Assembly: GCA_963924565.1 (NCBI GenBank)
Contig: OZ004609.1
Span: 10,788,001 to 10,852,000, forward strand
Length of the DNA stretch: 64,000 bases
Source of the DNA: Ascidiella aspersa
Taxonomy: Eukaryota
Direction of reading: 5' to 3'
The translations under genes were made by a program, and so were the position numbers. A model generated the notes under the pieces. The model did no database searches, was not told where the DNA came from, and saw only the letters and a list, made by a program, of their open reading frames with translations. Below are positions 4,708 through 36,845 of the stretch, in pieces; the stretch's first letter is position 1; every line of letters begins with the position of its first letter.

Positions 4708-5435
4708 CTGATCTCTATGAAACCTGGATAGCGCAACTGCGTGCTTTGAAAGGTTCCAAAAGTGCGTAAATTTTGCATTACGGCTTATGGGAGAGGTATC
4801 TTAAAATTGTCGTTATGGCAATATTTGCCGAATTTTAAGGGATTATTTATGGTATTGGTATGCTTGACTATACACAATACTCTAATAAAGCAGAATAACT
4901 TGATTTTAGCTCCTGCTGATAGAAATATACTTCGTTTTTACTGGCACCAAAAAATTTTTTTTTTATTGCAACAAGGCAACGTCAAGTTAGGTAAAATCAA
5001 TTTATATGATATACAAATCTTTCGAATGGCCTTTTTGATCAGTCTAGTTAATGTATTTTTTATGTACTTAACTATGCTGGTTGGTAACGCTGTTCTGACA
5101 ACAACATTTCTTAGCATTTATTTTTGCATAATAGTAACAGCAGCAGGTAGTAGTAAGGGTTTTAATTGAAGCTATATGCATAAGTAAAATCAGTTATTTT
5201 ATTTAATTGCTTTTAATTTCTCATGGATGTCCGGAATTAGTTGCTGTGTTTTATATGGTGTTTGTCTGTGTCATCCACTAACAAACATTGGCCACCAGAT
5301 TCCATCACTAACTGGTGTTCAAATGGCAAAATGTAGGATATTATCACATTCCAGTTCATTTTTTGTTTATTGTCGTTACTCTGTTAGGAAAACATATTCG
5401 TGCATAAATAACTTATCCATAATACAAAATCTCTG
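4708..5435 (+). repeat. Dispersed repeat, homologous (inverted) to 19590-20070 and to 34680-34854 plus 35845-36070
   Basis: Shared blocks such as CTCCTGCTGA..AGAAATAT..TTCGTTTTTACTGGCACCA, GTTGCTGTGTTTTATATGGTGTTTGTCTGTGTCATCCACTAACAAACATTGG and GAAACCTGGATAGCGCAACT. Confidence 0.8.
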
Positions 5436-6164
5436 AATGTGTGGGCTGTACTGGATTCCTCTAGTCAATTCACTCCTCGCCTTCAGAGCAGCTTGTACTA
5501 ATAATACCAGTAGCAGCTCTTTGTTGTTGAGGGGTGCGTCGTCCCACGTGATGTTGGTGGTGTTTTCTACTACTTTCTTTATCACTTCCTTCGCCTCTTG
5601 CACTCCCCATAACTTCTGGGTCATCTTGCCCATTTTTGCTAGTGCGCTTTTAAGTGTCCTCGATCCTTTGTCAAAACTCATGCTGTTGTATGCCCTCTTT
5701 GATAGCAGTTCTGTAAAATTGAAATCTTCTTCGAAGAGTCTTTCTTTGAACGCGTTTACACTCGGTTTCGTATCGAAGCTTTTTGCCACCCTTTCTTCTA
5801 TTTGTAGCCATTGATTGTTGGCCTTTTCGAGGAGACCCCTTTGTCCATTAATAGATGCGCCTCTGCCGGGATGGCGACCCATGCCGCCGTATTCTTCACC
5901 ACTCCTTTGTACGTCGTCGTTATACCCAATTTCAACAGGGCGTCGTGCACGGATTTTTTCTCAGCATTCCTGGGGTCCCCCCCTGGACGGGACTCACGGT
6001 CATGAACAATCCATGGGTGGTAATTGGAGCTGCCCTTCTCCACCGGTCCGATGTAAATGATTGCCTTCTCGCTCCTGGTAATTCCCGTCTGTCCAGTTGT
6101 TGTCGTAAAAGCAAACTTTCTTGCCCGATATCTTTAATCCGTTTTTCTCGTTCTCTGTATTCAT
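5435..6164 (-). pseudogene. Endogenous ssDNA virus Rep fragment, copy A (divergent, frameshifted)
   Basis: YRARKFAFTTTTG..IYIGPVEKGSSN, then DTKPSVNAFKERLFEEDFNFTELLSKRAYN and ELLLVLLVQAALKARSE..GIQYSPHI. Collinear with the Rep at 10373-11380 and ends just before Walker A. Confidence 0.9.
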
Positions 6165-6919
6165 TTTGGTAGGTATTAAGTAATCAAAGATTAAATTCCT
6201 TTGCCTAGTTGTTCACAGAAAAAAATACTGGAATCCCTTACTTGTTTTTAGTAAAAGCAGTAAACATGCGTGACGTCGGCGTAAAATTTCAAACCGGCCA
6301 ATGAGAAAATGGCATTGTCTTCTCGTCCAATCAGAGTTCAATAAAATCTTTTAGCATGTCTATTTTTTTCCATCTACGTACCTTTTTTGCTTTCTCTGCA
6401 TTAGAGATCCGTGCGCAGTGTAGCAAAATGTAACATGTTGAAGACAAAAGTCGGCCGCAAGTTTGAAGCTCAAGATTTGTTTCGCTATTATTTTTTTAGA
6501 AGCTGGAACTGCAAAAACTCAACCAAGAAGAGAAATGCTTGCTAAAATTGATTTTATTTGGAATACGGAAACCAAGATTTCTACTGGGTGTCTAAAGTAT
6601 ACATTTGAGACTTCGTTTCTGATGTCTAGTTGTTGTCTATACAATTTTAACTCTGGTTTTCTTGGAATTGCCTTGTTAAACTAATTAGCGCTACCCCAAA
6701 GTTTGGTTTGAAATTGTCATATTGAATGTGACAAAGGTCATTTAGAAAATAAATCTGTGTTTTTTGTTCGAAACGATACTCCTGCTTTGCTGTATTGACA
6801 CATTACGCACGAATAATCAGTAGTATTAGTACTAACAACAAACCATTTCACTGTTACGCGGACATAAATTTACTTCATTTAGTGGAAAATATTTTAGTCG
6901 AAAGATCCAGAAAAGCTGG

Positions 6920-9900
6920 GAACATTAAGGACGGAACAACTTTCGGCGCTCGTCTAGAATCCTACCACAACGAACATTATTTGGGTTAGGGTGTCGGTTA
7001 GCGTTTGGGTTTGGGTGAGTCCAGTAATAGTGTTAAACAATATTACTTGACCTACCCACACCCAAACACTAACCGACACCCTAACCCACATATTATGCAT
7101 TGCTTAATATTTATTTCAACGTTGTGGTAGGATTCTAGACCAGCGCCCAACTTTCATGTTTTTTGGCTGGTAAAATATATTTCTTAAATTTTGCTTTTCA
7201 TATAGCTAGCCGTAGTAAACGATAGATTAACGTTCTTTTTAGACAGTGAAACTCGTATTCTACCGCGTTATACATTTTGTACCCTTTGTGTTTCTGGAGT
7301 TAGCAGCCACCACCTCCTCGAAATACTTTCGTTTTTTCTTCTGTCGGCGCCACATGAACTCATCGAAAATATCCGGGGATGAATTTCTCTGGTGCGCCAT
7401 TTACCTCTTTCAGGTACCGTTTAGCCGCGCACCACAAGCTTTCGGTGATTGGACCGAATGGTTGACAGTATCATGATATGTATGGAGTGATATCAAATGG
7501 AAAACGAACAATGTGGTTACCTGTTAAATTATTATAGGCTTGTCACTTATCAGACCAAATTGTAGTTCCAGGCATGATGTTGGCCTGAATAATCGGCAGT
7601 AATGTCGTGGCACGGTTTGAAGGAAGCATTCCCTTAAAGCAGCAGTGTTAAGTAGACATAAAATGAAAATCTTATCTTGTCGAGATGTCCACGCCGCCAA
7701 ATACCCCATGTTTGGGAAGTAGGGCGAGCCTGGGCATTTGCACTTGACTTGCGTCGTGCCACCATTGATTGACGCGTCGATGGCCACCACATGCCTGCCC
7801 TACTTCCCCGATCATTTGCCGATTAACAATAAGGTCTGCAGAGCATATCTTTGAAAAAAGGTTTGTTTAAACCAAGTTAAGTTTGTAAAATACTGGCTAA
7901 TCTGACAAAGTACTGTCCCTACTTTGTATACTAAGTTTAGTGGAAAATATTTAAAGATAATTGTAATAATAACTCTTCGAAACACATAAAACAAAAAGAG
8001 TAAACACCAAAAATTTAGTTTCAACCTTACAAAATGTATTTTTCCACCTAAATTTTACGACATACGATCAATCCTGCTGATTTTGTTGCTAGGAAGCCAT
8101 TATAACATGCTTGAAAGAGCTAACTAGGTTAGAGGCGCTAAAGTGTTAAAATATTAAAGTTATTGGGGGGGGGGGGGGGTGGCTCATCGGTCCGGCCTGA
8201 TCATAGGTCCCGGTTTTCCCTTACAAAGTTACAATGCCCCTTTTGTAACACTGTTCAGAATTTGTCATATCTTAACTACTGGCTACTCCCTCCTCACAAA
8301 AAATGACTGGATATGTTAGGAACGCACTCACAGTAAACCCGTTTTAGCTTTTTCAAAACTATGTTCTTTCCGTACGTTTTTTTACCATACTCTTACTTAC
8401 ACTCCATCCAGGGTTACATTAAACTGTTCGGACTTTTGGGATGTTTTTTTAAATCAGAATAATTCGGATTTTGTTTATCTGAGTAACAAGCACTATCTGT
8501 TTGACAGTAAAACAAAATTTTGTACATTTAAAAACTGTATTAAGGATTTCTGGCGCTAATCCGGGTCGCGCTGCCGGCGCCACATAAACTCATCTAGGTA
8601 GCCTGGTATGAGATGTGCCGGAGCGCCGTTCACACTTTTTGGGTAGCGTTTTGCTGCACACCATCATAGACTTTCAATATGGTTTGTGTGAACGCCAGCT
8701 GGTGATAAAAATTCTATTGAATCGTGCTGGAACCCTATAGCAGGAAAAAAAGTTTTATCTCATCAATTATTTTTTTTATAAACGGGAATAGCGCAACAGC
8801 TAAAGCTATAAACATCTACATTGTTTTAAACTTACACGACAAGTTGGCGTAGGCGCGCCACATGTCGGACCATATTGTGGTGCTTGGCTCCTGTTTGCCA
8901 ATATAATGGGTGAAGCATTCTCTAGAAAAACATAAATAAAAATGAAGTGATATCGCAACAAATATGTATATACGGTAAGTTGATGTTATTAAATGAACTC
9001 ACTTGGTGTCGACGCCGCCAAATACCCACAATTGGGGTATATTGACCATGCCTTATTGGCGCTTAGCTTACGCCGAGCCACCAGGGGATTATTCGTCGAT
9101 TGCGACGACGTGGCCGACGCCGCCTATCAGTGCCCTTTCAGCTAGCAAATCATGTGAACAAATCTGTGAAAAACATAAATTTTTATAAAACTTCAAACGC
9201 ACGCATAGTCGCATACATACACACACACACACGCGCAAAAACGATAAACATAGTAGTTATACTTCTAACAAATTTCGCCAATTAGTCTGTTTCGACAGGG
9301 CAGTTTGGCGGAGGATATCTATCGTCGTTGCTTTATATGCCCAATGGTAACCCAGTCAGAAATTTTAATGCGGGCCTTACTCGAACTATCATCGGTGTTA
9401 GTATGGCCCATTACCAGATTACCACAGAAACCCCATAGATATATCCCAGCTGGGAGACCGGAAAGGTAACATCGGCCCATGTTAGATTTTCTTTGATTTC
9501 CCATACATGGCATCCCACATATGGTTCAAGCGTGAAACTAGCCTGGCCAAATATATTCCTGCTTTACACCAATTTTAAAATAGCAAGCAATCAATATTTA
9601 TTGTCATTAAATTTCCGCGCACAGAAGCACAATAACAGCACGTACAAAAATATCAAACGGTTATTCAAAAAAAAAAGTTAAAAACAATTGAAGAAAACGG
9701 CTTTAAAGAATAACTTAGGAATGATTAAATATAAACACAAATAGAAAAAAAGAATTATAAACATTGCTGTAATAAAAAAAACATGGATAGAACTTTTGAC
9801 ATCACACGAGTTACAAACCGCAAAATACTAAACAATTAAATCATAAGTTATGGCCAATTCTTTCAGAGTTTTGACAGTTGATGGAATGCTTAACCAAGAG

Positions 9901-10180
9901 GTTCGTAAACAATAAATAGCTAAATGTAACTGTTGACAGTATACTCATAAACACATATTAATGCAATTTATGCCTGAGTTTTGGTTTTCATATCCACTTG
10001 TAATTGTTTCTTGGTGGTTACAAACACAATATTGAGTGTTGAGTGAGGATATGGAACATCTGTAATAACATAATTAGTGTTAATGTATGTGTATACATGT
10101 TTATATACACATAAATATTAAAATTATGTGCTAGTAAAACGTTTGAACTAACTATGTTTACAAAAGCAACAAACCTGCTC
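6920..10180 (+). repeat. Segmental duplication, copy 1 (~3.25 kb)
   Basis: Matches 13189-16450 at offset 6269-6270 with about six differences by eye. Identical ORF translations appear in both copies. Confidence 0.97.
6945..7147. mobile_element. Fold-back MITE, Merlin-like (GG termini, 8-bp TSD)
   Basis: TIR GGCGCT(C/G)GTCTAGAATCCTACCACAACG, TSD CAACTTTC (6937-6944 and 7148-7155), nearly palindromic interior. The superfamily call rests on termini and TSD only. Confidence 0.8.
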
Positions 10181-10299
10181 AAAGCAGTGCAGTGTAATAG
10201 TGTATCTAATTAGCATATTTAAAATTTTTTTTTTATTGAAAAATTTTTTTCTTTTTTCTTAGTTCGGAGGGTCAAACGAACTCCCATCATAACCCCTCT

Positions 10300-10393
10300 G
10301 CACTAAACACTACACTATTAGTAATGTATTTCATTTTACACTAGTGTTTTAGTGTATTTTATTTTACATTACTTATAGTGTAGTGTTTAGTGC
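10300..10393. other. Viral hairpin H1a, downstream of Rep
   Basis: Perfect 19-bp stem GCACTAAACACTACACTAT/ATAGTGTAGTGTTTAGTGC, 9-bp stem AGTAATGTA/TACATTACT, 7-bp stem TACACTA/TAGTGTA and a 6-nt loop. Confidence 0.92.
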
Positions 10394-11380
10394 CCACACA
10401 ACATATACAACATATATACCATTGTGGTGCATAAACTTCACGGCGGCCAACAGGGCGTCGTTATTAAAGAAGGCGTTGCCTGCATCATCTATCTTCAGCA
10501 CCTTATGGCGAAAACGTAGCGCCATCTGCCCCACGCCCTGCGAGTCGTTGGTGAGGATGCTTGCATACTCCACTGGGAAGAACATTTTCCCGAGGACGGT
10601 TTTACCCTTCCCCGCTACCCCGTGTAGCATTATATGCGGAGCGTATTCTATCCCTCCTGCTTCCGATCGCGCCTCCAATCCCGCTTGTATCAAAACTAGC
10701 AGCAGCTCGTCGGTCGTTAGTTGATCTTGATTGTACTCTATGTTCTTTGCTTGATTTATGATATGGTAGATACCCTTTTTCGCTTCTTCTACCGTCCATT
10801 TGGGTACTTGGTTCTTTGCCATTTTTTTGAGAGCCTTTTTCAATTTATTTTTTTTCTTTCCAAAGGTCACCTGGTTGTAGGCACGCTTCGCCAACAGTTC
10901 CGGAAAAGAGAAATCTCTTTGAAAGAGCCGCTCTTTGTACACGTTCATGGACGGCTTCGTGTCGTATTCCGCGGCTACTTCCTCGGCTATCTGTTGGTAT
11001 TGACCCTTGTTTGCTGCCGACCCTTTCTTCATATGCTGCTTTATCTCTTCGGGAACGTCGGTTGGCTCGGCGTGCTTGTACATGTACCTGCACCATTCTG
11101 CTTGATTCTTGATTGCCGCTATGTATGTCAATGTGAACCCTAGCTTTTTGAGTAGGTCTGTCGCTTTCTTCTTGGTTATTGCCAATGGTTGCGCTCCCCC
11201 CTCCTGACTCTTCATGATGCACATCCCATGATGGTGGGGTATGTTCGAGTTGCCTTTCTCGAGGGGCCCTACATAGATTGTGCATCGAGCCGTCTGGGTT
11301 ATTCCAGGCTTCCCAGCGACCGTTGTAAAAGCCCATTTTCGGCCTCTGTATGAATTTGCGGTGTCTTCGCTTCCATTCAT
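10373..11380 (-). CDS. rep: CRESS-type Rep (HUH endonuclease + partial SF3 helicase), C-terminally deleted
   Basis: Motif I WAFT, motif II PHHHG, motif III YMYK, Walker A GVAGKGKT, Walker B KIDD. Departs from copy C after KFMHHN because of a ~675-bp deletion. Confidence 0.9.
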   Translation of the reverse strand: MNGSEDTANSYRGRKWAFTTVAGKPGITQTARCTIYVGPLEKGNSNIPHHHGMCIMKSQEGGAQPLAITKKKATDLLKKLGFTLTYIAAIKNQAEWCRYMYKHAEPTDVPEEIKQHMKKGSAANKGQYQQIAEEVAAEYDTKPSMNVYKERLFQRDFSFPELLAKRAYNQVTFGKKKNKLKKALKKMAKNQVPKWTVEEAKKGIYHIINQAKNIEYNQDQLTTDELLLVLIQAGLEARSEAGGIEYAPHIMLHGVAGKGKTVLGKMFFPVEYASILTNDSQGVGQMALRFRHKVLKIDDAGNAFFNNDALLAAVKFMHHNGIYVVYVVWALNTTL

Positions 11381-11510
11381 CGTGGTAAATCAGTAATAAA
11401 TCTTCTGTTAACCTATTAAGCCTTAAGGTTTTCTGGAAAGCAGTGTCAAGAGGATTAGGTTTAAGATAATTAGTTGCTATATTTCTGATAACGTCGATAG
11501 TAGGAAACAT
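10845..11510 (-). CDS. Overprinted accessory ORF (221 aa) overlapping the 5' half of Rep
   Basis: Starts 130 nt before the Rep ATG, behind a TATA-like motif. Homologous open frames exist in copy C (MFPTID...PNPLDTAFQKTLR) and copy D. Confidence 0.7.
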   Translation of the reverse strand: MFPTIDVIRNIATNYLKPNPLDTAFQKTLRLNRLTEDLLLIYHDEWKRRHRKFIQRPKMGFYNGRWEAWNNPDGSMHNLCRAPRERQLEHTPPSWDVHHEESGGGSATIGNNQEESDRPTQKARVHIDIHSGNQESSRMVQVHVQARRANRRSRRDKAAYEERVGSKQGSIPTDSRGSSRGIRHEAVHERVQRAALSKRFLFSGTVGEACLQPGDLWKEKK

Positions 11511-11559
11511 TTTTGCAATGGTACATTTTTATTTGCACGAACATATATACACACAGATT

Positions 11560-11647
11560 ACACTAAACACTACACTAAAGTTAATGTATTTCATTTTACA
11601 CTAATGTATAGTGCAGAACAGATTACATTAAATATAGTGTGGTGTTA
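11560..11647. other. Viral hairpin H2a, between capsid and Rep blocks
   Basis: ACACTAAACACTACACTA...TTAATGTA...CACTA-ATGTA-TAGTG...TACATTAA...TAGTGTGGTGTT. The right arm overlaps the capsid stop codon. Confidence 0.88.
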
Positions 11648-13063
11648 AAATGGATTTGCGAATACGACATCTAGTTCCATTGTATATGGTATGCAAATGA
11701 AGTTGTCGGTTTTGTCGGTATATCCCACTGTTGACGTCGAGTACGTGGCTCCTCGTAGTTCCTTTTTGATTGATCCCTCATAGACATGCATCTGGGTTGT
11801 TAGTGCTTGGCATTGTGGTGATACACAGGTGCTTGCCTCCCACCATGGTGTTTCGTAATATTGTGCTATGGTCTTGTTTGTGCTGTGTGTCGCGTCGTTG
11901 CATATGGTGTGCGTATCTGATTGCAGGAATTTGATCGGTATTTTTGTGAATGAATCTCCCAGCTGGTATCTTGTGCAGTCCTGATATTCTTCCAGTGGGA
12001 ATTCTGGTACGTCTGCTGAGTTTGTTGTTTGGTATCCATAGTCGAATCTCAATCTGTGGTTGAATCCTGTCTTTTCTGTTGCGACGTCGAGTAACATTAT
12101 TGGCATATTTCTTGTCTTGTCTGTACTGTTGTTTAGTGCTCCTGCTGGCCATAAGTACATGTTCCAATTTGAGAACTTTATCATAGTATACTTGGGTGCT
12201 AGTGACTTGACTTGTGATAGCTGCGTTCCTGTTGTTAGTCCATTTGGCCCGTAGACTCTCCATCTTCTTCCTAACGTTGTTCCTTTTGATTCTAGTGCAC
12301 TCATCTGTCTGTGTATCACTTCACTATGTACGATCATTTGTGCTCCAGCCGCAGGCAACGAAACGCTTTCATAAGTGTTGCCATCCAGCCACGTTTTCCA
12401 TGGTTTGAAGGTTCCCTTTGGGTCGTCGACTGCTTTAGTGTAGAACCACCAGACTCCTTTTGTTTTGCATTTGACCTGGACTGTTGGTTGTACTGGGTGC
12501 ATTCTAGGCACTGGCAATGTTCTTGATCTTCCTCCTCCTCCCCCAGCTCCTGCACTATTAGTCTCCGCAAGTCTTGCTCTTTTCGCTGTTGGTTCTCCGT
12601 CGTCCATAAGTGACTGGGAATTGATGGATAGATCCTCCATCGCCTCATTCATTGGACTTTCTATAGGGCTGTTTCCTCGTATGTTGGCGGGGGTTGTTGT
12701 AGTTGCTGTTGTAGGCCTTGTTCTGTTGTAATTCTGTATCTGCGGCCAATTCTTCTCAGTGCGTGCCTTTTTCGCAGGGGGCATGTGAGGTAGTAATGCC
12801 TTCTTAGCCTTGAACACACCACGCACGATAGTCCCACTAACGCCAGGAATATGAGCGCTATTTCTGAGTAGATCGCTATCCGCAGAATTAAACTTGAAGT
12901 ATGCTTCGTTACCCAATTTTTGATATTGCTTGTCGTGTTCTTTGCAAGCCTCATCAAGTTCCCCAGTAGTGTCTTCCCCTATAGCATTGAACGGTCCGCA
13001 ATGTGGATGACCTGGTATTGTAATTCCACCTGTTGCTAACTTCCTCTTCGAGATCAATCTCAT
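11645..13063 (-). CDS. Parvovirus-like capsid protein with N-terminal phospholipase A2 domain (472 aa)
   Basis: PGHPHCGPFN (Ca-loop variant of PGYKYLGPGN), LDEACKEHDKQY (catalytic HDxxY), YFKFNSADSDLL, NLS-like PPAKKAR and PTAKRAR, glycine tract GAGGGGG. The ORF is uninterrupted. Confidence 0.88.
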   Translation of the reverse strand: MRLISKRKLATGGITIPGHPHCGPFNAIGEDTTGELDEACKEHDKQYQKLGNEAYFKFNSADSDLLRNSAHIPGVSGTIVRGVFKAKKALLPHMPPAKKARTEKNWPQIQNYNRTRPTTATTTTPANIRGNSPIESPMNEAMEDLSINSQSLMDDGEPTAKRARLAETNSAGAGGGGGRSRTLPVPRMHPVQPTVQVKCKTKGVWWFYTKAVDDPKGTFKPWKTWLDGNTYESVSLPAAGAQMIVHSEVIHRQMSALESKGTTLGRRWRVYGPNGLTTGTQLSQVKSLAPKYTMIKFSNWNMYLWPAGALNNSTDKTRNMPIMLLDVATEKTGFNHRLRFDYGYQTTNSADVPEFPLEEYQDCTRYQLGDSFTKIPIKFLQSDTHTICNDATHSTNKTIAQYYETPWWEASTCVSPQCQALTTQMHVYEGSIKKELRGATYSTSTVGYTDKTDNFICIPYTMELDVVFANPF

Positions 13064-13112
13064 AATGAATGTAAACTTACCTTATTTGCATATTATATTC
13101 CCTTTCTTGTCT

Positions 13113-13189
13113 ACACTAAACACTACACTAATACTAGTGTACTTCAAACACCACTACTCACTAGTGCAGATCCTTTACACTGAATTTAG
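13113..13189. other. Viral hairpin H3a upstream of capsid, right arm truncated
   Basis: ACACTAAACACTACACTA, inner stems AGTGTA/TACACT and CACTA/TAGTG. Cut after TTTAG where the duplicated host flank resumes. Confidence 0.8.
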
Positions 13190-16100
13190 AACATTAAGGA
13201 CGGAACAACTTTCGGCGCTCGTCTAGAATCCTACCACAACGAACATTATTTGGGTTAGGGTGTCGGTTAGCGTTTGGGTTTGGGTGAGTCCAGTAATAGT
13301 GTTAAACAATATTACTTGACCTACCCACACCCAAACACTAACCGACACCCTAACCCACATATTATGCATTGCTTAATATTTATTTCAACGTTGTGGTAGG
13401 ATTCTAGACCAGCGCCCAACTTTCATGTTTTTTGGCTGGTAAAATATATTTCTTAAATTTTGCTTTTCATATAGCTAGCCGTAGTAAACGATAGATTAAC
13501 GTTCTTTTTAGACAGTGAAACTCGTATTCTACCGCGTTATACATTTTGTACCCTTTGTGTTTCTGGAGTTAGCAGCCACCACCTCCTCGAAATACTTTCG
13601 TTTTTTCTTCTGTCGGCGCCACATGAACTCATCGAAAATATCCGGGGATGAATTTCTCTGGTGCGCCATTTACCTCTTTCAGGTACCGTTTAGCCGCGCA
13701 CCACAAGCTTTCGGTGATTGGACCGAATGGTTGACAGTATCATGATATGTATGGAGTGATATCAAATGGAAAACGAACAATGTGGTTACCTGTTAAATTA
13801 TTATAGGCTTGTCACTTATCAGACCAAATTGTAGTTCCAGGCATGATGTTGGCCTGAATAATCGGCAGTAATGTCGTGGCACGGTTTGAAGGAAGCATTC
13901 CCTTAAAGCAGCAGTGTTAAGTAGACATAAAATGAAAATCTTATCTTGTCGAGATGTCCACGCCGCCAAATACCCCATGTTTGGGAAGTAGGGCGAGCCT
14001 GGGCATTTGCACTTGACTTGCGTCGTGCCACCATTGATTGACTCGTCGATGGCCACCACATGCCTGCCCTACTTCCCCGATCATTTGCCGATTAACAATT
14101 AGGTCTGCAGAGCATATCTTTGAAAAAAGGTTTGTTTAAACCAAGTTAAGTTTGTAAAATACTGGCTAATCTGACAAAGTACTGTCCCTACTTTGTATAC
14201 TAAGTTTAGTGGAAAATATTTAAAGATAATTGTAATAATAACTCTTCGAAACACATAAAACAAAAAGAGTAAACACCAAAAAATTTAGTTTCAACCTTAC
14301 AAAATGTATTTTTCCACCTAAATTTTACGACATACGATCAATCCTGCTGATTTTGTTGCTAGGAAGCCATTATAACATGCTTGAAAGAGCTAACTAGGTT
14401 AGAGGCGCTAAAGTGTTAAAATATTAAAGTTATTGGGGGGGGGGGGGGTGGCTCATCGGTCCGGCCTGATCATAGGTCCCGGTTTTCCCTTACAAAGTTA
14501 CAATGCCCCTTTTGTAACACTGTTCAGAATTTGTCATATCTTAACTACTGGCTACTCCCTCCTCACAAAAAATGACTGGATATGTTAGGAACGCACTCAC
14601 AGTACACCCGTTTTAGCTTTTTCAAAACTATGTTCTTTCCGTACGTTTTTTTACCATACTCTTACTTACACTCCATCCAGGGTTACATTAAACTGTTCGG
14701 ACTTTTGGGATGTTTTTTTAAATCAGAATAATTCGGATTTTGTTTATCTGAGTAACAAGCACTATCTGTTTGACAGTAAAACAAAATTTTGTACATTTAA
14801 AAACTGTATTAAGGATTTCTGGCGCTAATCCGGGTCGCGCTGCCGGCGCCACATAAACTCAATCTAGGTAGCCTGGTATGAGATGTGCCGGAGCGCCGTT
14901 CACACTTTTTGGGTAGCGTTTTGCTGCACACCATCATAGACTTTCAATATGGTTTGTGTGAACGCCAGCTGGTGATAAAAATTCTATTGAATCGTGCTGG
15001 AACCCTATAGCAGGAAAAAAAGTTTTATCTCATCAATTATTTTTTTTATAAACGGGAATAGCGCAACAGCTAAAGCTATAAACATCTACATTGTTTTAAA
15101 CTTACACGACAAGTTGGCGTAGGCGCGCCACATGTCGGACCATATTGTGGTGCTTGGCTCCTGTTTGCCAATATAATGGGTGAAGCATTCTCTAGAAAAA
15201 CATAAATAAAAATGAAGTGATATCGCAACAAATATGTATATACGGTAAGTTGATGTTATTAAATGAACTCACTTGGTGTCGACGCCGCCAAATACCCACA
15301 ATTGGGGTATATTGACCATGCCTTATTGGCGCTTAGCTTACGCCGAGCCACCAGGGGATTATTCGTCGATTGCGACGACGTGGCCGACGCCGCCTATCAG
15401 TGCCCTTTCAGCTAGCAAATCATGTGAACAAATCTGTGAAAAACATAAATTTTTATAAAACTTCAAACGCACGCATAGTCGCATACATACACACACACAC
15501 ACGCGCAAAAACGATAAACATAGTAGTTATACTTCTAACAAATTTCGCCAATTAGTCTGTTTCGACAGGGCAGTTTGGCGGAGGATATCTATCGTCGTTG
15601 CTTTATATGCCCAATGGTAACCCAGTCAGAAATTTTAATGCGGGCCTTACTCGAACTATCATCGGTGTTAGTATGGCCCATTACCAGATTACCACAGAAA
15701 CCCCATAGATATATCCCAGCTGGGAGACCGGAAAGGTAACATCGGCCCATGTTAGATTTTCTTTGATTTCCCATACATGGCATCCCACATATGGTTCAAG
15801 CGTGAAACTAGCCTGGCCAAATATATTCCTGCTTTACACCAATTTTAAAATAGCAAGCAATCAATATTTATTGTCATTAAATTTCCGCGCACAGAAGCAC
15901 AATAACAGCACGTACAAAAATATCAAACGGTTATTCAAAAAAAAAAGTTAAAAACAATTGAAGAAAACGGCTTTAAAGAATAACTTAGGAATGATTAAAT
16001 ATAAACACAAATAGAAAAAAAGAATTATAAACATTGCTGTAATAAAAAAAACATGGATAGAACTTTTGACATCACACGAGTTACAAACCGCAAAATACTA

Positions 16101-16450
16101 AACAATTAAATCATAAGTTATGGCCAATTCTTTCAGAGTTTTGACAGTTGATGGAATGCTTAACCAAGAGGTTCGTAAACAATAAATAGCTAAATGTAAC
16201 TGTTGACAGTATACTCATAAACACATATTAATGCAATTTATGCCTGAGTTTTGGTTTTCATATCCACTTGTAATTGTTTCTTGGTGGTTACAAACACAAT
16301 ATTGAGTGTTGAGTGAGGATATGGAACATCTGTAATAACATAATTAGTGTTAATGTATGTGTATACATGTTTATATACACATAAATATTAAAATTATGTG
16401 CTAGTAAAACGTTTGAACTAACTATGTTTACAAAAGCAACAAACCTGCTT
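13189..16450 (+). repeat. Segmental duplication, copy 2 (includes MITE copy 13214-13416)
   Basis: Near-identical to 6920-10180. Confidence 0.97.
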
Positions 16451-16574
16451 AAAGCAGTGTAGTGTAATAGTGTATCTAATTAGCATATTTATAATTTTTT
16501 TCTTTTTATTCAAATTTTTTTTTTCTTTTTTTCTTAGTTCGGAGGGTCAAACGAACTCCAATCATAACCCCTCT

Positions 16575-16667
16575 GCACTAAACACTACACTAAACTTAAT
16601 GTATTTTATTTTACACTAGTACTTAGTGCAGAATAGATTACATTAAATATAGTGCAGTGTTTAGTAC
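16575..16667. other. Viral hairpin H1b
   Basis: GCACTAAACACTACACTA...TTAATGTA...CACTA-GTACT-TAGTG...TACATTAA...TAGTGCAGTGTTTAGTAC. Confidence 0.88.
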
Positions 16668-16707
16668 CCACAATAACATACGATATATACAACATACAAT
16701 AATACAA

Positions 16708-16902
16708 TTAAAATTCGATTCCACTTTCTTTCATTGCAGCTTCAACCATGTCTATCATTTCGTAGTCCAATGCTTGTAATTCTTCGTCTTGTTTTTCTTC
16801 GTCTCGTTTTTCCTGTTGACATGTGCACTGCGCACACATCCCATTGTGCTCACAACTTCTTCCGTCGTCATAGAAGTCTTCTATGGTTGTCTCAGCGGCC
16901 AA
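16708..16902 (-). CDS. Small acidic Cys/His-rich viral ORF (64 aa)
   Basis: Overlaps the Rep stop codon and ends ~40 nt before the hairpin. Contains CEHNGMCAQCTC. Confidence 0.5.
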   Translation of the reverse strand: MAAETTIEDFYDDGRSCEHNGMCAQCTCQQEKRDEEKQDEELQALDYEMIDMVEAAMKESGIEF

Positions 16903-18329
16903 GCCCGTGGCAGTCTCAACACGTGATGTCTTGGCCGCCGGTTCTTCTTCTTCTGATTCATACGCCCTTTTACTTCCTCTGCTGCTTTGTGTGCTCTCTT
17001 GTCCTCTTCTTCTTCCTCTTCTTCTGCGCTATCTTCTTGTAGTAGTTGTGATACTTTTCTCACGTACTCCGCTATTTCAATCAACGATGGCTGAACAGCC
17101 ATTTGGCGTTGCTCCATTTTCTCTACGATTTCTTCTACTAACTCCATTAGTACCTCGTCGGTAATATCCGAGGTGATTCTTTTCTGTTGACCGAGGTTGG
17201 GATTTTCGCTTGCTTCGTTCCACTCTGCGGTAACAAATCTTCGCCGCATTGGCGCCATATCCTCGAGCCCTGCCATCTTGACTAACGGGTTGTTGGCGTT
17301 TGTAGTAATAAACGCGCAGGTCGCCTCGTTGTCCTGCCGGTCGCCGTGAGTCTTGGCGCTCCACGCATTGTGGTGCATAAACTTCACGGCGGCCAGCAGT
17401 GCGTCGTTGTTAAAGAAGGCGTTGCCTGCGTCATCCACCTTCAGAACTTTATGACGAAAACGTAGGGCCATCTGCCCCACGCCCTGCGAATCGTTGGTAA
17501 GGATACTCGCGTACTCTACCGGGAAGAACATTTTCCCGAGGAAGGTCTTCCCTTTTCCCGCCACCCCGTGTAGCATTATGTGGGGGGCATACTCTATGCC
17601 TCCTGCTTCTGATCTTGCTTCTAGGCCCGCCTGAATCAGTACCAGCAACAGCTCGTCGGTTGTCAATTGATCGTGATTGTACTCTATGTTTGTGGCCTGT
17701 TTAATTATATGATAGATTCCTTCTTTTGCTTCTTGTACTGTGTCCACTTGGGCACTTGATTTTTTGACATCTTCTTTAGGGCCCTCTTCAATTTATTCTT
17801 TTTTTTTGCCAAATGTCACCTGGTTGTACGCACGCTTGGCCAGGAGTTCCGGAAAAGAAAAGTCTCTCTGGAATAAACGCTCTTTGTAAACGTTCATACT
17901 TGGCTTGGTGTCGTACTCGGCGGCCACCTCCTCTGCGATTTTTTGATACTGCCCCTTGTTTGCCGCTGATCCCTTTTACATAAATTCTTTCATTTGATCC
18001 GGTACCTCTATGGGCTCGGCATGTTTGTACATGTACCGAGCCCATTCCGCTTGATTTTTCACTGCTGCCACGTAGGTCAACGTAAACCCGTGGTTTTTGA
18101 GGAGCTCTGTTACCCTCTTCTTCGTAACTGCCGGTGACTGTGCTGCCCCCCCCTGATTCTTCATTATGAACATTCCATGATGGTGTGTAATGTTCGAGTT
18201 GCCTTTCTCTAGGGGGCCTACATAGATTGTGTAGCGTGCCGTCTGGGTAATTCCAGGTTTCCCAGCTACCGTTGTGAATGCCCACTTTCGGCCTCTGTAG
18301 CTTGATGCTTGCTCTTCTGATCCATTCAT
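16881..18329 (-). pseudogene. rep: Full-length CRESS-type Rep (~480 aa reconstructed) with one nonsense codon and two small indels
   Basis: WAFT, THHHG, YMYK, GVAGKGKT, KVDD, B' KTHG, motif C FITTN, Arg finger MRRRF, acidic then basic tail. TAA at 17976-17978, +1 in the poly-A near 17800, +2 near 17742. Confidence 0.92.
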
Positions 18330-18459
18330 GATGATATATTAGTAATAAATCGTCAGTTAATCTATTTACTCTTAAGGTTTTCTGAAATGCAGTATCAAGT
18401 GGGTTAGGTTTAACGTAATTTGCTGCTATATTGCTTATCATATCAATCGTAGGAAACAT
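17788..18459 (-). CDS. Overprinted accessory ORF, copy C
   Basis: MFPTIDMISNIAANYVKPNPLDTAFQKTLR..., homologous to 10845-11510 and open over the same span. Confidence 0.65.
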   Translation of the reverse strand: MFPTIDMISNIAANYVKPNPLDTAFQKTLRVNRLTDDLLLIYHHEWIRRASIKLQRPKVGIHNGSWETWNYPDGTLHNLCRPPRERQLEHYTPSWNVHNEESGGGSTVTGSYEEEGNRAPQKPRVYVDLRGSSEKSSGMGSVHVQTCRAHRGTGSNERIYVKGISGKQGAVSKNRRGGGRRVRHQAKYERLQRAFIPERLFFSGTPGQACVQPGDIWQKKRIN

Positions 18460-18510
18460 TTTTTCAAATGAAACATATTTATTTGCGTCAACATATATAC
18501 ACATTTTTTT

Positions 18511-18575
18511 GCACTAAGTACTACACTATATTTAATACAGTTAAAATTGCACTATAAAAGTAGTACAGTACTAGA
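18511..18575. other. Viral hairpin H2b (shortened variant)
   Basis: GCACTAAGTACTACACTATATTTAAT...TGCACTATA...TAGTACAGTACTAG, in the same position as H2a and abutting the capsid stop. Confidence 0.7.
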
Positions 18576-18798
18576 ACGGATTTGCGAATATGATGTCACA
18601 TTCCATTGTATACGGTATGCAAATGAAGTTGTCCGTCTTGTCCGTATATCCCGTTGTTGACGTTGTGTATTGGGCTGCTCGTAGTTCCTTTTTGATTGAC
18701 TGGTCGTAGACGTGCATCTGGGTTGTTATTGCTTGGCATGATGGTGATTGACACGTACTGGCTTCCCACCATGGTGTTTCGTAGTATTGTGCTATGGT
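18571..18798 (-). pseudogene. Capsid C-terminal fragment, copy C
   Basis: TIAQYYETPWWEASTCQSPSCQAITTQMHVYDQSIKKELR...FICIPYTMECDIIFANPF* aligns with the copy B capsid end. Confidence 0.92.
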
Positions 18799-18835
18799 GG
18801 CTTTTTATGGTGAGACAAAGCCAAATCCGGTTTAG

Positions 18836-18930
18836 GGCGCTGGTCTAGAATCCTACTACAGTTATAAAATCTACACACAAAATTTGAGTTAGGGTGCGAG
18901 TTTGGGTGTGTGGTCAAGTATTATTATATT
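18836..18930 (+). mobile_element. One-ended copy of the Merlin-like MITE
   Basis: GGCGCTGGTCTAGAATCCTAC...GTTAGGGTG...TTTGGGTG. Confidence 0.65.
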
Positions 18931-20289
18931 CTTTATTTAATAAGAATTTAAACAATGCATGAATTTATGACAAATAATAATATTGTTGAATATTAAACTA
19001 ACAATATAATTGTTGTTGCTGATTTGAGTATCTCAGATTACTTAGATTTAATAATATAGATGATGTATGTTAACCTGTAAATATTTCCTGAAGACTTTTG
19101 TACTGGGAAAAATAAAAACAAACATGGAACAACAGCGAAGTGGTATATTCTTATCTGAATGATTTAAAGAGCAAGAATCAAGGCAAGCAACAAAATAATA
19201 CAATCCTGGACAACTTTTGTCTCATGTAATATGTGATGTGTAATGAGAACTAACAAGAAAAAACAATGAGAATTTGTTAAGATTTTTTAAATCAATATTG
19301 TCACCCAACAACTGGCTAAAACTAATATAAACTTGAAAGCACCGAAGGTTGTAGTTTGACATATAATGAATTACTCATTAAACACATAGATAGCGTTTTG
19401 TTAACATTTTTAAATTCAATAAGGGTAATTTATAGAAAATGCAACGTATAAACTTTTTACGAATTTACCTTTTATTTTATTGTTTAATTACAAGTGTCAT
19501 TTGACTTTGTATTCCTTAGTTATGGTTGTTTTTCTATTTGTGTAATGCAACAGAGTTGCTGCTGTGTGGAAAATAGTAATTATTTACAGAGATTTTGTAT
19601 TATGGATGAGTTATTTATGCAAGAATATTTTTTAACGACAATAAACAAAAAATGCACTGGAATGTCATAATATTCTACATTTTGCCATTTGAACACCAGC
19701 TAGTAATGGATTGGGCATCTGGTGGCCGCCAATGTTTGTTAGTGGATGACACAGACAAACACCATATAAAACACAGCAACTAATTCAGGACATCCATTAG
19801 ATATTAAAAGCAATTAAATAAAATACCTGATTCTACTTATGCATATAGCTTCAATTAAACCATAAAAAATACATTAACTAGACTGATCAAAAAGGTCATT
19901 CCAAAGATTTGTATATCATATAAGTTGATTTTACCTAACTTGAAATATTTTTTGGTGCCAGTAAAAACGAAGCATATTTCTCTATCAGCAGGAGCTAAAA
20001 AATCAAGTTATTCTGCTTTATTAGTATTGTGTATAGTGCCAAGCATACCAATACATCACTAATCCCTCAAAATTTAATGGTATATCCATATGCCTTCGAT
20101 TGGGTTGATGTTAGTCGAAACATTTTTAAATATTCGTTTTCCTCCATACAGCCAATGTGGCTTTTGCCTGGTGGAAAATTAATTTCCGGGATTATTTCCC
20201 GAATAGAATCAAATAGCTCTGTATTTGCTATTTTTACAAATTCCTGAAATGTCTTGTGATGTTTTTGGTATATTTGGACGGACATAGAT

Positions 20290-23639: not shown

Positions 23640-24090
23640 AACAAAAACATATATTTTGATATAAATTGATTGGAGCAAATTATTTGATTAAATATAAAAT
23701 GATTTAAAGATAAAGGAGATATTAACTAAAATGATTGAAAGATAAAAAGAAAGGTAAAGAACAGTATTCAAAAGAAATGGTTGATTGATTTATGAAAGAT
23801 GACTCTTTTAACTAAAAAATATAATTGATTAAATGATTTGGACAAACAATAAGTTGATTGGGGCAGATTATTTGATTAAAAATAAAAAGAAAGGTGAAGA
23901 ACAGTATTAAAAAGAAAATGGTTGACTTATGAATTATGACTCCACACAATGATTTAAATTGAAGTGGGGTTATAATAACTAAAAAGTTGTTTAATAAAAT
24001 GATTTGGACAAACATTAAATTGATTGGGGCACATTATTTCATAAAATATAAAATGATTAAAACATAAAATGAAGGGAAAGGACAGTATTT
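23640..24090. repeat. Degenerate AT-rich tandem repeat (~3 units)
   Basis: GATTGG(A/G)GCA.ATTATTT.AT.AAA.ATAAAA recurs at ~23668, ~23856 and ~24022. Confidence 0.6.
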
Positions 24091-27000
24091 AAAGTAAATA
24101 ATTAATTTTAACAAAGTGTTCATCAGTAGCAACAGCAGAAAGGTTATCTTTTTCTAATAAAATACTGTTTTGGCAAGCAAAGTAATTTTCGTTTGCTGCT
24201 GGTTCTTGTGTCATTCCTACACATGTGCTGTGGAACCACTGTGGACACCGAGAGCATTGTACCCAATGAACTTTTTTAGGGTCATCACATAGTTTGCACT
24301 TGTTGTTTCTTAGTGTTCCTTCAAGACAAGCCCCAACAACAGAATTGTATACTTGCTGGCGATAGTCAAATACTCCGGAATGCACAAGATTTTTGTTTGT
24401 TGCAAGCCATTTTGCATACATGCATACTAGGACCCCACAGCTATCTGTGTCTGCTTGTAGAGTCTGTGGCCAGCTTTCCACAGATGTAATGGAAAATTTG
24501 AACTTTTGTGTCATAAGATGATTTATAAATGCAAAAGCCCTTCGAACACTCATGTTTGTTTGAGTGCAAACCATTTGAACGGGATCAAGGTACAAAAGAA
24601 TTCGCTTTTCAATATCTACTGCAAGTAATATCCAATGTCGTCCACTTGGGTTCCACGGCACAAATATCCACTTCTTGTTAGTTAGAGATATTTTAGACAA
24701 CAATCTTTTAATTGAGCCTTTTTGCTGTAGAATTAGGGCAACCATTGATGACACATAGAGGATGTTGCTATGACATACACTAAGTTGCCATAAAAAAACA
24801 TTTACAATCTCATCATATACATCCTGCACGAAAACTGTGATCATGGGACAGCAAAACCAGTAATTCTCCTCTGGGTATGTGTGGCTCAATAGATTTTATT
24901 TGTAGCATTGATAAAGAATGTGGACCATTTTTAACTATGGTGTGTTCATGATGTTGAACAACATTAAGGTTCGGCGTGATTTTTTTAGTGTTACACTTTT
25001 GTCTTGGGTTCTGTAGCTCTTTAGCAGGTGATGGCAATGGCAGCATATTGTCTTTGTGTGTACCACAACTTGCAGAAAGTTTGTTTTGTATTCTTGGGGT
25101 TGGATATAGCGTGACAACTTGATGCAATGCCTGCATCTCATTAGCGAGTGCTCCAGATCTTGAAGCAAAGTAGTTTGGTTTTGGATGTTTCCGAGGAATC
25201 TCATTATGACAAAGACTGTTTGAAGGATGCTTTCGTTTGATTTTTAAAGAAGTTTTTGTTAAATCTTTTTTTATTGACTTGTTTGTACAATATTTTGTTG
25301 AATCTAAAGCATTACGCGAAACTTTTAACCCAGCATCATAACTGCATGTTTTTGTAATAGCTATAATAACCTCAGAGAGATTTTGCTCAACTTCTTTTAA
25401 AACTTTCTCGGATCCAGCATCATATATCAAATTTTTTATTTCTGCAAGTTGGTCTACAATGTTTTTGGTAGTCTTGGGGTTTGGTTTGTCATCAGTTTTT
25501 GGTGTGTAGTAAAACTCAGCGGATGCTTACACTCATTGCTTGTTACTGTTATATTTTGATCTGTAGTTGAAATTGGAGTGCCAACAGAACTCTCATTTAA
25601 GTTTTCTTTAGGTGCGATCTTCCTAACAATGTCATCGTCTAGTGTTAAAAACACAGAATTGCTGTACCATTGAGGTAAGCTAAACCAAGAAACGTCATCA
25701 AATGTTTTGAAAATGGCAAACATGTGCTTGCACGGCAAAATATTTTGTCTGAAGTCAGGGCATGTACATTTTGGAAACTCCTGTGCAGAGCCAAGTCGAA
25801 CATTATATATCTCATTATTTAAAGTGCTTTTTACAGTAAAAGTATTGCCAATCCTTGAGATACTTCCAGCCTTAACACCTGTGGACTGTGCAATTCTTTG
25901 CATGCAAAACTTAAAAGGTATTCGGGCGGTTTTTCAAATAAAAAGGAAAATTATCATTGTACTTTCTGTAGGAACCTGATGACCTCAGATTCTTTTCCTC
26001 GTACCTGTATTACAAAATATATTTAGTAAGCAACAGGCATACTGTTAATTTAATATTGTTACCTTCGTTTAGCTTCTAGAAGAAATTCTTTATGCAGAAT
26101 TGTTACTAATCCTGAAAGTGACTTATCTGTGCGAAATTTTATGTGGCACTCCTTAAGAACGCGGTTCTGCCTCTCCACACCTTGTTGGTTCTGATTAATA
26201 CTTTCAGTCTATCTGCTCGATAAAGGTACACCCATCGCTATAACAAAACTATTTCAAAATTCTTAAAAAATGTACAAATATACTTTTTAATATATTATTA
26301 TAGTTTAACCTTCTCTTTTAGCCACATGTTCTCAAAGTATCTTTGTAATTTCAAGTTGTTTTGCCAAAGCTCATTTGACCTTAAATTCTGCAATGCTTTA
26401 ATAAAGACACTTTTTGAGTTTCTGCCTGAGCTACACTTCTAATATGTTTTAGAACTTCCTCTCTTCTGTCCCCAACATTATTTTCAGTCCTTTTTACCCA
26501 TCTTTCCCATGCCTGCTCTCGATGGAAATCACAAATTAATACCCTGCAATCTGCAGAAAAATATTAAATAAATAACTTGTAAATCTTTGTAAAACCTACT
26601 TCAACAACAAGCAAAAATGTCTTCAATAATTATTATAGTACCACCTACATTTGCTTTACTCCCAAGAATGTTTTTACCTGTAAAAGTTCTTTCTATTGCA
26701 TTTATCTCTGCATCACATTTGTCCGTCATGAAAAAAGTAGGACTCCAATTAGGACACCATGATTTTAAAACATTCAGCGCTTCTTCAATATCTGCCTGCC
26801 TTTCATTCTGTGTAAACATTGGTTTTTACGCACAAGAAAAATAAAGGTAGGGCATATTTTGATGTTTTATATGTGGCATCCAACCGGCAGAGATATCTTG
26901 TCCATAACGGAGAAGCAGTCTGCGTTGCCAAGCAAACTGGTGGACAAATAGAAGCGCTGACAGTTGGAGAATAAGAGCACAATCATCAGTATTTTTTTCT

Positions 27001-28130
27001 AAATCTGGCAAAAAATTTGTGTCAGCAATATAGGGTCTAAACATAATATTGTCATCCTTAAGAGCTTCCTTTTTCCATTGGTCCACTAACAATTGGACAT
27101 TACTTTGGTCAATTTTAGCAAGCCTTCGTTTTGCGAAAGACCTGCAATAGTGGTTCTGAATGTCTTTTTTTAATGGAAAAAATCTTCGATTTGAGGTCAA
27201 TGGAGTAGTTTCCTTATTTTCAAAAAGTTCTTGGACAACGTATATATAAAGTCCTCGTTTGATTTCCTGTATATTGTGTACACCATTGTTAACCATTTCA
27301 TCAATTTTTGATTTCAGTCTTTGGTCTACTTTTTGAAATATTCCTGCCGCCTAAAAATTATTAAAAAACAATATATTAATATAATTTTTCCATTAAATAT
27401 AACAAGGGATTTAATTCAATAAAGTCTAACAGCAGCCAATTGTAAATAATTATGATTTCTTTTAGCACAGTAACAAACCTGTCCCAACACATGCCCAGAA
27501 TGTTCATCCTCATGGGGAAATGTAATGCTACATGCAGCTTCCTTGACTAATATTGTTCATCTTTTTTATCCAAGATCCTTTTGCGAAGTATTTTTATTTC
27601 GAAAGAAGAAATAGTTGAGTTTAAGCACTTAGTTACGTAGCATGATACATACTTGATATTGCGGAAATGTAATAACTTCTCTAATCGTTATCTTAGCCTT
27701 GCAACCCATTTTTTTTTTAACATTGTAAGTTTAAATTGGTTTTAAATGGTTGGGGATGGTCCAGCAACTGAGAAAACAAGCATTATTTAACATACAAGTT
27801 ATTACTTGTTTGGGAATTTGCCGTGCTCTTTTATCATTGCTTGCTTTGTTATAGTCTTTTCCATGTTGACAGATGAGTTCCTTTCTTTTTGTAACAACAA
27901 TATATGGTATTGATTCCTCATCCCACTGAATTGGACTTTTTGACAAATCTACCACAAGATAAGTTAAAACATAAAGCTAAGATGAAACAAACGATTGTAA
28001 GTAGTTTTTATAGAAATGCCTACCATGGGAGTGGTTGCGATATGCAATAAACTTAGTTGTAGGAAATATTTCTAAAGTTTGTAAGAGCATCTTCAGCTTT
28101 TTGGATTGATGAAAACCACTTAAGACATAA
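24089..28130 (-). pseudogene. Multi-exon Mutator-like transposase gene: MULE core, SWIM, Ulp1-like protease, PHD
   Basis: LFVHQFAWQRRLLLRYG, DAT(Y)K, FFMTDKCDAEINAI, ICDFHREQAWERW, SWIM CTCPDF...PCKH, HWILLAVD...QADTDSCGV, WVQCSRCPQWFHSTCVG. Confidence 0.85.
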
Positions 28131-35836: not shown

Positions 35837-36786
35837 GTATTGTGTATTAAAGTACTAAGCATACCAACATCACACTAATCCCCTAAAATTCGGTAAAATA
35901 ATTACCAAATATTGTCATAAAGACAATTTTAAGATATCTCTCCTATAAGCCGTAATGCAAATTTTGCGCATTTCAGGAACCTTTCAAGATGGCGTCAGAG
36001 CTTTCTAATTGGCTTCAAAAACCGCTCACGCGTGCCGTTAGTTGCGCTATCCAGGTTTCATTGAGATCAGCGATGTCAACTTGACACCCAAAACAATTTA
36101 TATGTCCACAGTACCCTCTTTATAACACTGGTCAGAATTTGTTATCTTAACTACAAAATGGCCTTTTCAAGGCAAAATTCCTCGAAGCTGTCTTTTTTAG
36201 AGTCTGTTGGCCTTAGAAATTTGTTTTTTTTAATTTACTCTTCAAAATTCCCGATAAATATTTCTCATATATCGTAATCTTACCAGATGAAATGACATAT
36301 TCATCATGTGACGCAGGTTAAAGTATCATCTATTCCTATGGGATGGTTTCCACCACTAGGGGTCGCGCGGACCGACTCAGATGAAGGCGCATATTTTCAT
36401 AATGTAAGAGATAGGCTGTCTGTGTCAAATATGGGCTAAAATTAAATTATAAAGGTTTTGTTGCGGTCTTTTTGAGGTAAAACAATAGAAAATGTTGTGG
36501 AACGCAACCGCGCCATTCCCGAGCACGCGGCTCGAGGCATTCTTGTGTTATTTTAATTGCTATGCGTTGTTTGTGTGTACGCGCTTGATTTGTGCCTACT
36601 GCCGGAATGTAATTGGTGTGTTTGTAATTACTTCGTGAGCCTATAAAAGGCTGTTCACTTACTACTACGTTACCATTCCATTTTACTGATTTCGACTGAA
36701 TACAACTTAAGTTACAACAAACTGTGCTTATTTGGACTCTGTAAAGAAGCAAGGCGCAAACGTGATTGAAAACACAACAGAGTTTT

Positions 36787-36804
36787 TGGCGACGAGGATG
36801 GGAT
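36787..36804 (+). promoter_or_regulatory. Primer-binding site complementary to the tRNA-Ser(GCU) 3' end
   Basis: TGGCGACGAGGATGGGAT is the reverse complement of ATCCCATCCTCGTCGCCA. Confidence 0.85.
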
Positions 36805-36845
36805 CGGTCAACTGAACAACTTTCAATCTCAACGTTTGTGTCAAT

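Follow-up and report, generated by a model that had tools for sequence, protein, structure and literature searches.

Two Strains of an Unclassified Virus Behind One Duplicated Host Junction and Their Possible Origin by Insertion at a Resident Viral Element

INTRODUCTION

Integration of adeno-associated virus (AAV) may come with partial duplication of the target, according to the available portions of PMC3413126 and PMC2900306. In gene targeting by one-sided invasion, one end of the donor is joined by homology and the other by end joining (available text of PMC9299229), and the directed insertion of minute virus of mice (MVM) and dependoparvovirus DNA at shared binding and cutting sites for the replication protein Rep is cited, from Corsini 1997, in the accessible part of PMC5978394. 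[quoted passage not shown] Oomyviridae / Lineavirales are described in the available portions of PMC12451638, PMC13426907, and bioRxiv 10.64898/2026.04.22.720165 as linear single-stranded DNA (ssDNA) viruses with a Rep of the circular Rep-encoding single-stranded (CRESS) type, a capsid protein with a phospholipase A2 (PLA2) domain, and predicted stramenopile hosts. The locus described here lies in a 64,000-nucleotide stretch, hereafter the window (G000:C3:10788001-10852000, containing no N), of an assembly of 308.6 Mb in 75 contigs. Two strains of an unclassified virus, designated B and C, each follow a copy of one 3.26-kb flank in the order flank F, virus B, flank F', virus C. As read from the nucleotide sequence, the locus combines a shared host junction, separate viral ancestries, an exchange at the outermost viral bases, and one homologous with one nonhomologous join.

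The germ-line entry of nonretroviral viruses and the clustering of their fossils may reflect either trapping by selection or targeted insertion. The present locus appears to record an insertion directed, to the base, at an older fossil; both of its joins can be read, and the choice between the two is thus testable at one locus. The dating of EVEs assumes that a shared flanking junction denotes one integration event; here, such a junction neither proves a single event nor dates the virus behind it. The virus itself appears to be linear and of CRESS type, to have parvovirus-like ends, and to have entered the germ line of an animal repeatedly.

RESULTS AND DISCUSSION

Duplicated Flank and Divergent Viruses

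The features of the locus are collected in Table 1. Flanks F and F' are 3256 and 3257 bp in length, respectively, which is a target duplication as in AAVS1-type integration provided that the tandem is real. A first-pass annotation of this DNA had described them as host flanks differing at about six sites. Global alignment of positions 6920-10179 with 13189-16449 gave exactly six: three substitutions (7774/14043, 7831/14100, and 8336/14605) and three one-base indels (8008/14278, 8165/14434, and 8591/14861), for a divergence of 0.09%. One of the six could be polarized, the indel at 8591 being derived in F'. The flanks are near-identical as claimed, but repeat matches in the assembly show that they are mostly a patchwork of transposon pieces. 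Identity falls from 10180/16450 onward, where the same annotation had placed a sharp divergence; the first differences are found there, but the true boundary is the transposon cut at 10175/10176. Viral windows of 200 bp are 71.5-89.5% identical, and the step is statistically significant: seven substitutions fall in 110 bp of viral terminus and only three in the whole 3256-bp flank (Fisher p = 3.6e-9).

By BLAST, B and C share 78.6% identity over 1461 bp. Among 318 Rep codons, 30, 19, and 138 differences occur at codon positions 1, 2, and 3, respectively, and the ratio of nonsynonymous to synonymous rates (dN/dS) is 0.053 (bootstrap 0.029-0.082), with a dS of ~1.4 that is near saturation. The corresponding differences for helicase codons 215-320 are 8, 0, and 38. 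In the capsid end common to both viruses (75 codons), dN/dS is 0.25. A helicase tree of 15 fragments, which omits overlapping duplicate fetches and matches shorter than 250 bp, places B with the copies at loci L003 and L006 (support 91/96) and apart from C. A control segmental duplicate (L017/L018) has a virus that is 0.5-0.8% divergent and flank windows that are mostly 0.4-3.5% divergent, with higher values in poorly aligned windows; among 127 codons there are five synonymous and five nonsynonymous changes. Judged by the dN/dS of 0.053 for Rep, which is unlike that control pair, B and C diverged as replicating free viruses and are two separate strains. A simple tandem or segmental duplication was ruled out by the contrast between 0.09% in the flank and 21% in the virus together with this dN/dS, and the control behaves as expected of such a duplication. 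Three claims of the first-pass annotation are upheld by these data, namely that helicase changes are mostly at third positions with a synonymous bias, that unequal divergence excludes simple duplication, and that the strains are different; B and C are not sisters in the helicase tree, and no endogenous donor was found in the assembly.

Table 1. Features of the locus (positions are those of the window unless another locus is named)
Feature	Position	Strand	Description and basis
Virus A, Rep fragment	5376..6183	-	More distant member of the same family, outside the duplication; open reading frames (ORFs) 5376-5960 and 5798-6133; tblastn 31-38% to Rep relatives
Promoter-like module	6215-6420; L004 6320-6487; L012 2201-2335; L041 6730-6826, 7754-7855; L010 6922-7018; L015 7267-7332		
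Flank F, first copy	6920..10175	.	Repeat patchwork; alignment and repeat matches elsewhere in the assembly
Palindromic element like a miniature inverted-repeat transposable element (MITE)	6942..7150	.	22 bp inside the start of the duplication; 6920-7170 predicted hairpin, -77.8 kcal/mol
Young dispersed transposon, first 825 bp (full >2.8 kb)	9351..10175	+	Cut at the virus junction; copies elsewhere
Virus B, Rep-side terminus	10176..10300	-	Host junction identical to that of C; termini comparison
Strain-typed repeat hairpin, iteron-like	10301..10390	.	Similar at 11561-11646, 13113-13188, 16576-16665, and 18513-18575
Virus B, Rep	10421..11380	-	320 codons, HUH nuclease and start of SF3 helicase; ORFs; ends at ~670-bp internal deletion, join 10419/10420
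Virus B, capsid gene	11645..13063	-	472 aa, N-terminal parvovirus-type PLA2 domain; Pfam PF08398, E 1.6e-11
Nonhomologous join B/F'	13188..13189	.	B broken within capsid-side repeat hairpin, at most 1 base shared; B without capsid-side telomere
Flank F', second copy	13189..16445	.	Six differences from F; alignment
Virus C	16446..18798	-	Terminus, Rep, and ~75 codons of capsid end, cut by common repeat; ORFs and alignment

Shared Junction and Position of the Exchange

The junction lies in a young transposon, the first 825 bp of which is 96-99% identical at 15 or more loci (40 of 107 candidates scored), with the nearest copy at 98.9%. All ten of the copies fetched continue beyond the cut point with one common sequence, nine of them for ~2 kb, and no remainder of the transposon was found in the window or in the neighboring loci examined. 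Because the copies run past the cut and the remainder is absent from these places, the virus cut the transposon once, after the transposon had inserted. B and C abut the same transposon nucleotide (10175/10176 and 16445/16446). In the 25 bases to the left of the viral end they have one mismatch, versus 12-21 mismatches for the other 20 of the 21 pairs formed by seven termini, and theirs is the only shared junction among the seven. The ends of other viral copies fall no more than ~10 bases from this viral position, next to unrelated sequence. The junction is common by descent, unlike the viruses that lie behind it, and could not have formed twice.

In the ~230 bases at the terminus, the identity of B is 88% with C but 96, 95, and 95% with L003, strain D, and L006, respectively. 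Going inward from the junction, B and C first differ after 5 and then after 15 bases, the base of B at 10190 recurs in other copies, and no C-like stretch was found within B in the alignment. Because sequence of the B strain type reaches the terminus and the first differences are so close to it, the exchange is placed in the outermost 4-14 viral bases. This position is what a linear donor used to its very end gives. A crossover deep inside the virus was rejected because B keeps its own strain type to the terminus. The other join of B, to F', is nonhomologous and lies 22 bases from the palindromic MITE.

The whole block, from virus A through C, seems to be set between two halves of a common repeat (4746-5435 and 18795-20074), the uninterrupted form of which is found at L004 4596-6247.

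Proposed Sequence of Events

On balance, these observations are best read as a later arrival of B, which would have joined the end of the resident C by homology on one side and by end joining on the other, duplicating 3.26 kb; we hold this reading with somewhat better than even confidence. C would have integrated first, cutting the young transposon at 16445/16446. A circulating strain B would later have entered the germ line at the resident C. The Rep-side end of B would have paired with the homologous end of C and, from there, primed outward copying of the flank. The other end of B, which was broken, would have been ligated without homology to a chromosome end at the start of the flank, beside the strong palindrome. 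One homologous and one nonhomologous join with a duplication between them imply a single event, with F-B-F'-C as its product. We infer the order of arrival, the exogenous source, and the strand mechanics from these features. The first-pass annotation had proposed that a second exogenous strain recombined with the resident element through viral homology and that the flank-plus-virus unit was reinserted. The separate strains, the shared junction, and the failure to find a donor all survive from that proposal, and a reinserted unit is the same product as that given here; the recombination is retained as a homologous end join but was resolved only at the outermost 4-14 bases, leaving nothing C-like in B.

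For the initiator, host repair of a break or stalled fork is tentatively proposed and is favored slightly over a nick by the Rep of B at the resident origin. The nick, by analogy with AAVS1, would give the same product and is regarded as rather doubtful. C keeps its own terminus and shares the repeat type of B, which bears on a putative Rep binding and nicking site in C.

The relative ages of the viruses were estimated from their lesions. C carries one stop and three frame-breaking indels in ~620 codons and B carries none in 792 (one-sided P 0.037). Private changes occupy 3 of 148 conserved columns of the shared Rep part in C versus 1 of 147 in B; a C no older than the duplication would be expected to have 0.16. 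Short-read contigs of run X1, which match 17460-17865 and 17916-18405 without difference, also contain the stop and two of the indels. These values are suggestive of C being older than B.

No near-identical donor was found in the assembly; among the matches listed, the best was 96% over 315 bp for B and 83% for C. Compared with the resident copies, B has a mosaic makeup, with an N-terminus like that of D and a helicase like those of L003 and L006, as expected of a circulating recombinant. Strain D was rejected as the donor of B at 87-96% identity.

Several points weigh against the later arrival of B at C as set out above. Only one such case was found. The assembly represents one haplotype with incomplete repeat scoring, and an endogenous donor of B may therefore exist unseen; a contig of run X2 is 97.4% identical to B over 615 bp, closer than any copy in the assembly, so unseen endogenous relatives of B do exist. 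The lesion test gives P = 0.12 once the ~670-bp deletion of B is counted as a lesion, C has one private change in 131 columns of the C-terminal half of Rep, like other copies, and "private" changes include natural viral variation. No piece across the B/F' join was found among the short-read contigs listed, which are swamped by repeats. The broken end of B lies at no recognizable nick site, 4-14 bases of microhomology would account for the join of B equally well, and homologous pairing at 88% identity should be inefficient.

Alternative Explanations

The missing spanning piece would be explained if F-B and F-C were alleles, one strain having replaced the other at the same junction, that either the assembler or an unequal crossing-over set in tandem. 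The depths in run X1 (67.8 for the flank contig, 26.6 and 29.4 for two C contigs) fit one flank per haplotype as well as they fit a tandem, contig depth not being equal to copy number. We nevertheless consider this arrangement unlikely. The window has no N gap, and an assembler would not invent a nonhomologous join such as B/F'. Neighboring alleles differ by ~1% (8 substitutions and 8 gaps in 773 bp for X1; 9 and 6 in 872 bp for X2), ten times the divergence of F and F', and the shared junction would still require a strain replacement. Run X1, which may be the source of the assembly, contains only 0.66 of the words of B, and no RNA data set was listed among those containing it. At window positions 4083 and 5467, X1 covers the nonassembly allele about twice as deeply as the assembly allele (69.2 of 106.8 and 63.7 of 101.9, respectively), a hint that there is an extra copy, that the genome is polyploid, or that the sample is mixed.

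An ordinary tandem duplication of flank and virus followed by conversion from an endogenous copy missing in the assembly would draw on a genome with ~31 viral copies, on strain D, 50 kb distant and with a Rep N-terminus 93-97% like that of B, and on the B-like contig of X2. A donor of the age of the duplication should exceed 99% identity, well above the best listed match; B is mosaic relative to all copies compared; and the conversion tract would need to stop exactly at the start of F'. This course of events is accordingly given a low probability, a little below that of the two alleles.

Integration of both strains together during a coinfection, with the flank recopied in the same repair, would give the same product, and direct joins between different strains do occur at C5:33.07 Mb. 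It is improbable, as C looks older than the 0.09% divergence of the flanks and short-read contigs bear out its stop and two of its indels. Equally improbable is a course with neither homology nor Rep guidance, in which a fragile resident end broke and the natural end of B was ligated there; the common viral end position of the other copies means that the end of B would fit unaided, but two breaks are required, one within 4-14 bases of the earlier junction and another for the duplication, and the stem of the junction palindrome is only 4 bp.

Comparison with Known Systems

Flank copying accompanies ectopic gene targeting. The locus is like one-sided gene targeting in its homology at one end and end joining at the other, and differs in being natural, with a viral donor 79-88% identical to the target (compared with the portion of PMC9299229 available). 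As with AAV in the accessible text of PMC3413126, an ssDNA virus with an HUH/SF3 Rep and hairpin ends is inserted beside an origin-like sequence and the adjoining host DNA is duplicated; here, a resident copy of a related virus is the target, the event is a heritable one, the join is base-exact, the Rep is CRESS-type, and any role of Rep is hypothetical. In the MVM and dependoparvovirus systems, viral DNA likewise joins DNA that carries a cognate origin, but these are laboratory systems and not germ-line EVEs (PMC5978394, available part). Shrimp IHHNV presents clustered ssDNA-virus EVEs of different ages with ongoing insertion and piRNA-like clusters; it differs in its scrambled fragments and one viral type per cluster, and no shared junction with a duplicated flank was found described in the available portions of PMC9357335 and PMC12287923. 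No precedent for insertion of a strain at the end of a resident EVE was found in the literature searched, which comprised titles and the starts of abstracts, with most subscription papers outside it. The structure is unusual and adds a new natural form, brought about by an unclassified virus, to the mechanisms known for integration and targeting; it suggests that old viral fossils can guide where new viruses land.

Genes, Ends, and Classification of the Virus

The ~670 bp of Rep deleted from B are present in C, where a premature stop (17976-17978) and indels that break the frame (near 17790, 17740, and 17000) interrupt Rep. An ORF of 227-241 codons overlaps the 5' part of Rep and is open in both viruses (10845-11528 in B, 17788-18513 in C); the B copy has no Pfam match. 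The capsid N-terminus of B resembles the VP1 N-termini of AAV and parvoviruses, and the rest is weakly like ssDNA capsids. The predicted model of the capsid body, a putative jelly roll, has a pLDDT of 28, with atlas scores of 0.90-0.92 to ssDNA capsid clusters.

No Pfam family matched Rep at E 0.01, and searches of PDB sequences with it returned generic P-loop matches only. Among its 52 relatives, 20 were looked up; the sole name given was "hypothetical protein", and no named member of Oomyviridae / Lineavirales was encountered. A Parvo_NS1 match is absent in 24 of 24 aligned Rep relatives, and 604 pattern matches among viral contigs yielded no confirmed relative. The Rep model (pLDDT 80) gave 11 CRESS Rep matches at E up to 0.001 in a viral fold library. 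In the PDB, nuclease domains of circoviruses and nanoviruses rank first, weakly (E 0.015-0.054), and AAV2 Rep68 ranks 34th. From these model comparisons, Rep is predicted to be CRESS-type.

All seven copies that have both genes in line (B, C, L001, L002, L005, L007, and L011) carry the capsid gene and Rep on one strand, with the capsid gene upstream. In the monosense genomes of Parvoviridae, the NS gene is upstream of the VP gene. Membership in Parvoviridae was rejected, since Rep resembles CRESS Reps and not parvovirus NS1 and the gene order is reversed; a linear ssDNA genome with terminal hairpins, as judged from integrated copies, is a feature in common. With Oomyviridae / Lineavirales, compared by the available descriptions only, the virus shares a linear genome, a CRESS-type Rep, and a PLA2-bearing capsid protein; it differs in its ~31 chromosomal copies in an animal-like genome, where they lie in contigs of 26-41 Mb and not in a stramenopile host, and in its capsid gene upstream of Rep. 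The virus, with a CRESS-type Rep, this gene order, and a parvovirus-like hairpin end, is unclassified.

A long Y-eared palindrome is found at the capsid end in L001, L002, L007, and L011, followed by nonterminal sequence. Because four integrated copies keep it, the viral genome is most likely linear with hairpin ends. A circular genome opened at a stem-loop, as the common end position might suggest, is disfavored because the capsid-side ends are extended telomere palindromes that never reach the Rep-side end. The GC-rich eared apex of the capsid-side telomere is identical in these four copies (L001 4080-4330, L002 6100-6370, L007 6500-6780, and L011 4240-4510), the strains being 70-82% alike elsewhere.

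Hairpins of short repeats flank each gene and fall into strain types. B and C have the same type, which is absent from L002, L005, L007, L012, and L015. By analogy with CRESS viruses, these hairpins may be Rep-binding iterons, and the common type would allow cross-recognition by Rep. The hairpin between the capsid gene and Rep of B (11561-11646) is less like its central counterpart in C than like the hairpins on the Rep side in L006 (93%) and C (90%), a pattern that points to recombination among viral repeat hairpins.

Other Viral Copies and Neighboring Sequences

The ~31 viral copies in the assembly were merged by hand, and some may be pieces of one insertion. Twenty-one lie within 20 kb of another copy, whereas 10,000 random placements gave 0.12 on average. 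This clustering fits landing pads and also trapping at piRNA-cluster-like loci; that EVEs act as landing pads which update loci is put forward as a hypothesis, with one shared junction among seven termini. Two loci on different contigs, L003 4205-5448 and L006 4365-5789, carry strains almost identical in the helicase (a branch length of 0.003 for each) with unrelated junctions, which would reflect recent repeated germ-line entry. Strains D (window 63555-64000 and L004 2056-3731) and E (L004 6655-7642) lie back to back 50 kb away, separated by a common repeat and a promoter-like module; an internal deletion in D keeps the reading frame. At G000:C5:33.068-33.077 Mb (L010 and L011), at least four strains that are 70-82% alike lie in the same orientation within 11 kb, some directly joined.

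The promoter-like module, which we take to consist of a cAMP response element (CRE) motif and two CCAAT boxes, occurs 12 times in the genome. Seven occurrences are within 10 kb of a viral copy and two more are within 50-70 kb. In five clusters, the viral genes beyond the module are oriented opposite to it; virus A, which lies on the other side of the module, departs from this pattern. The module is a candidate promoter of antisense piRNA-like clusters. It is conceivable, at long odds, that inherited copies keep a working origin recognized by a later Rep of the same repeat type and that strain-by-strain archives are built at antisense-transcribed clusters as a virus-driven antiviral memory resembling a CRISPR array.

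The ORFs near viral copies are presumably EGF-repeat and LDL-receptor-like and, together with an ALS2CR8 domain, point to an animal-like host. Elsewhere in the window, an ORF with a Ulp1-type protease and a PHD finger was found at 24089-24895, and an ORF with an ALS2CR8 domain was found at 26826-27350. A retrotransposon with identical 289-bp long terminal repeats and reverse transcriptase/RNase H and integrase ORFs occupies 36493-40966 and appears to be a very recent insertion. At 41892-44723, a Harbinger-type DDE transposase (PF13359) faces an ORF for a YqaJ-like nuclease (PF09588).

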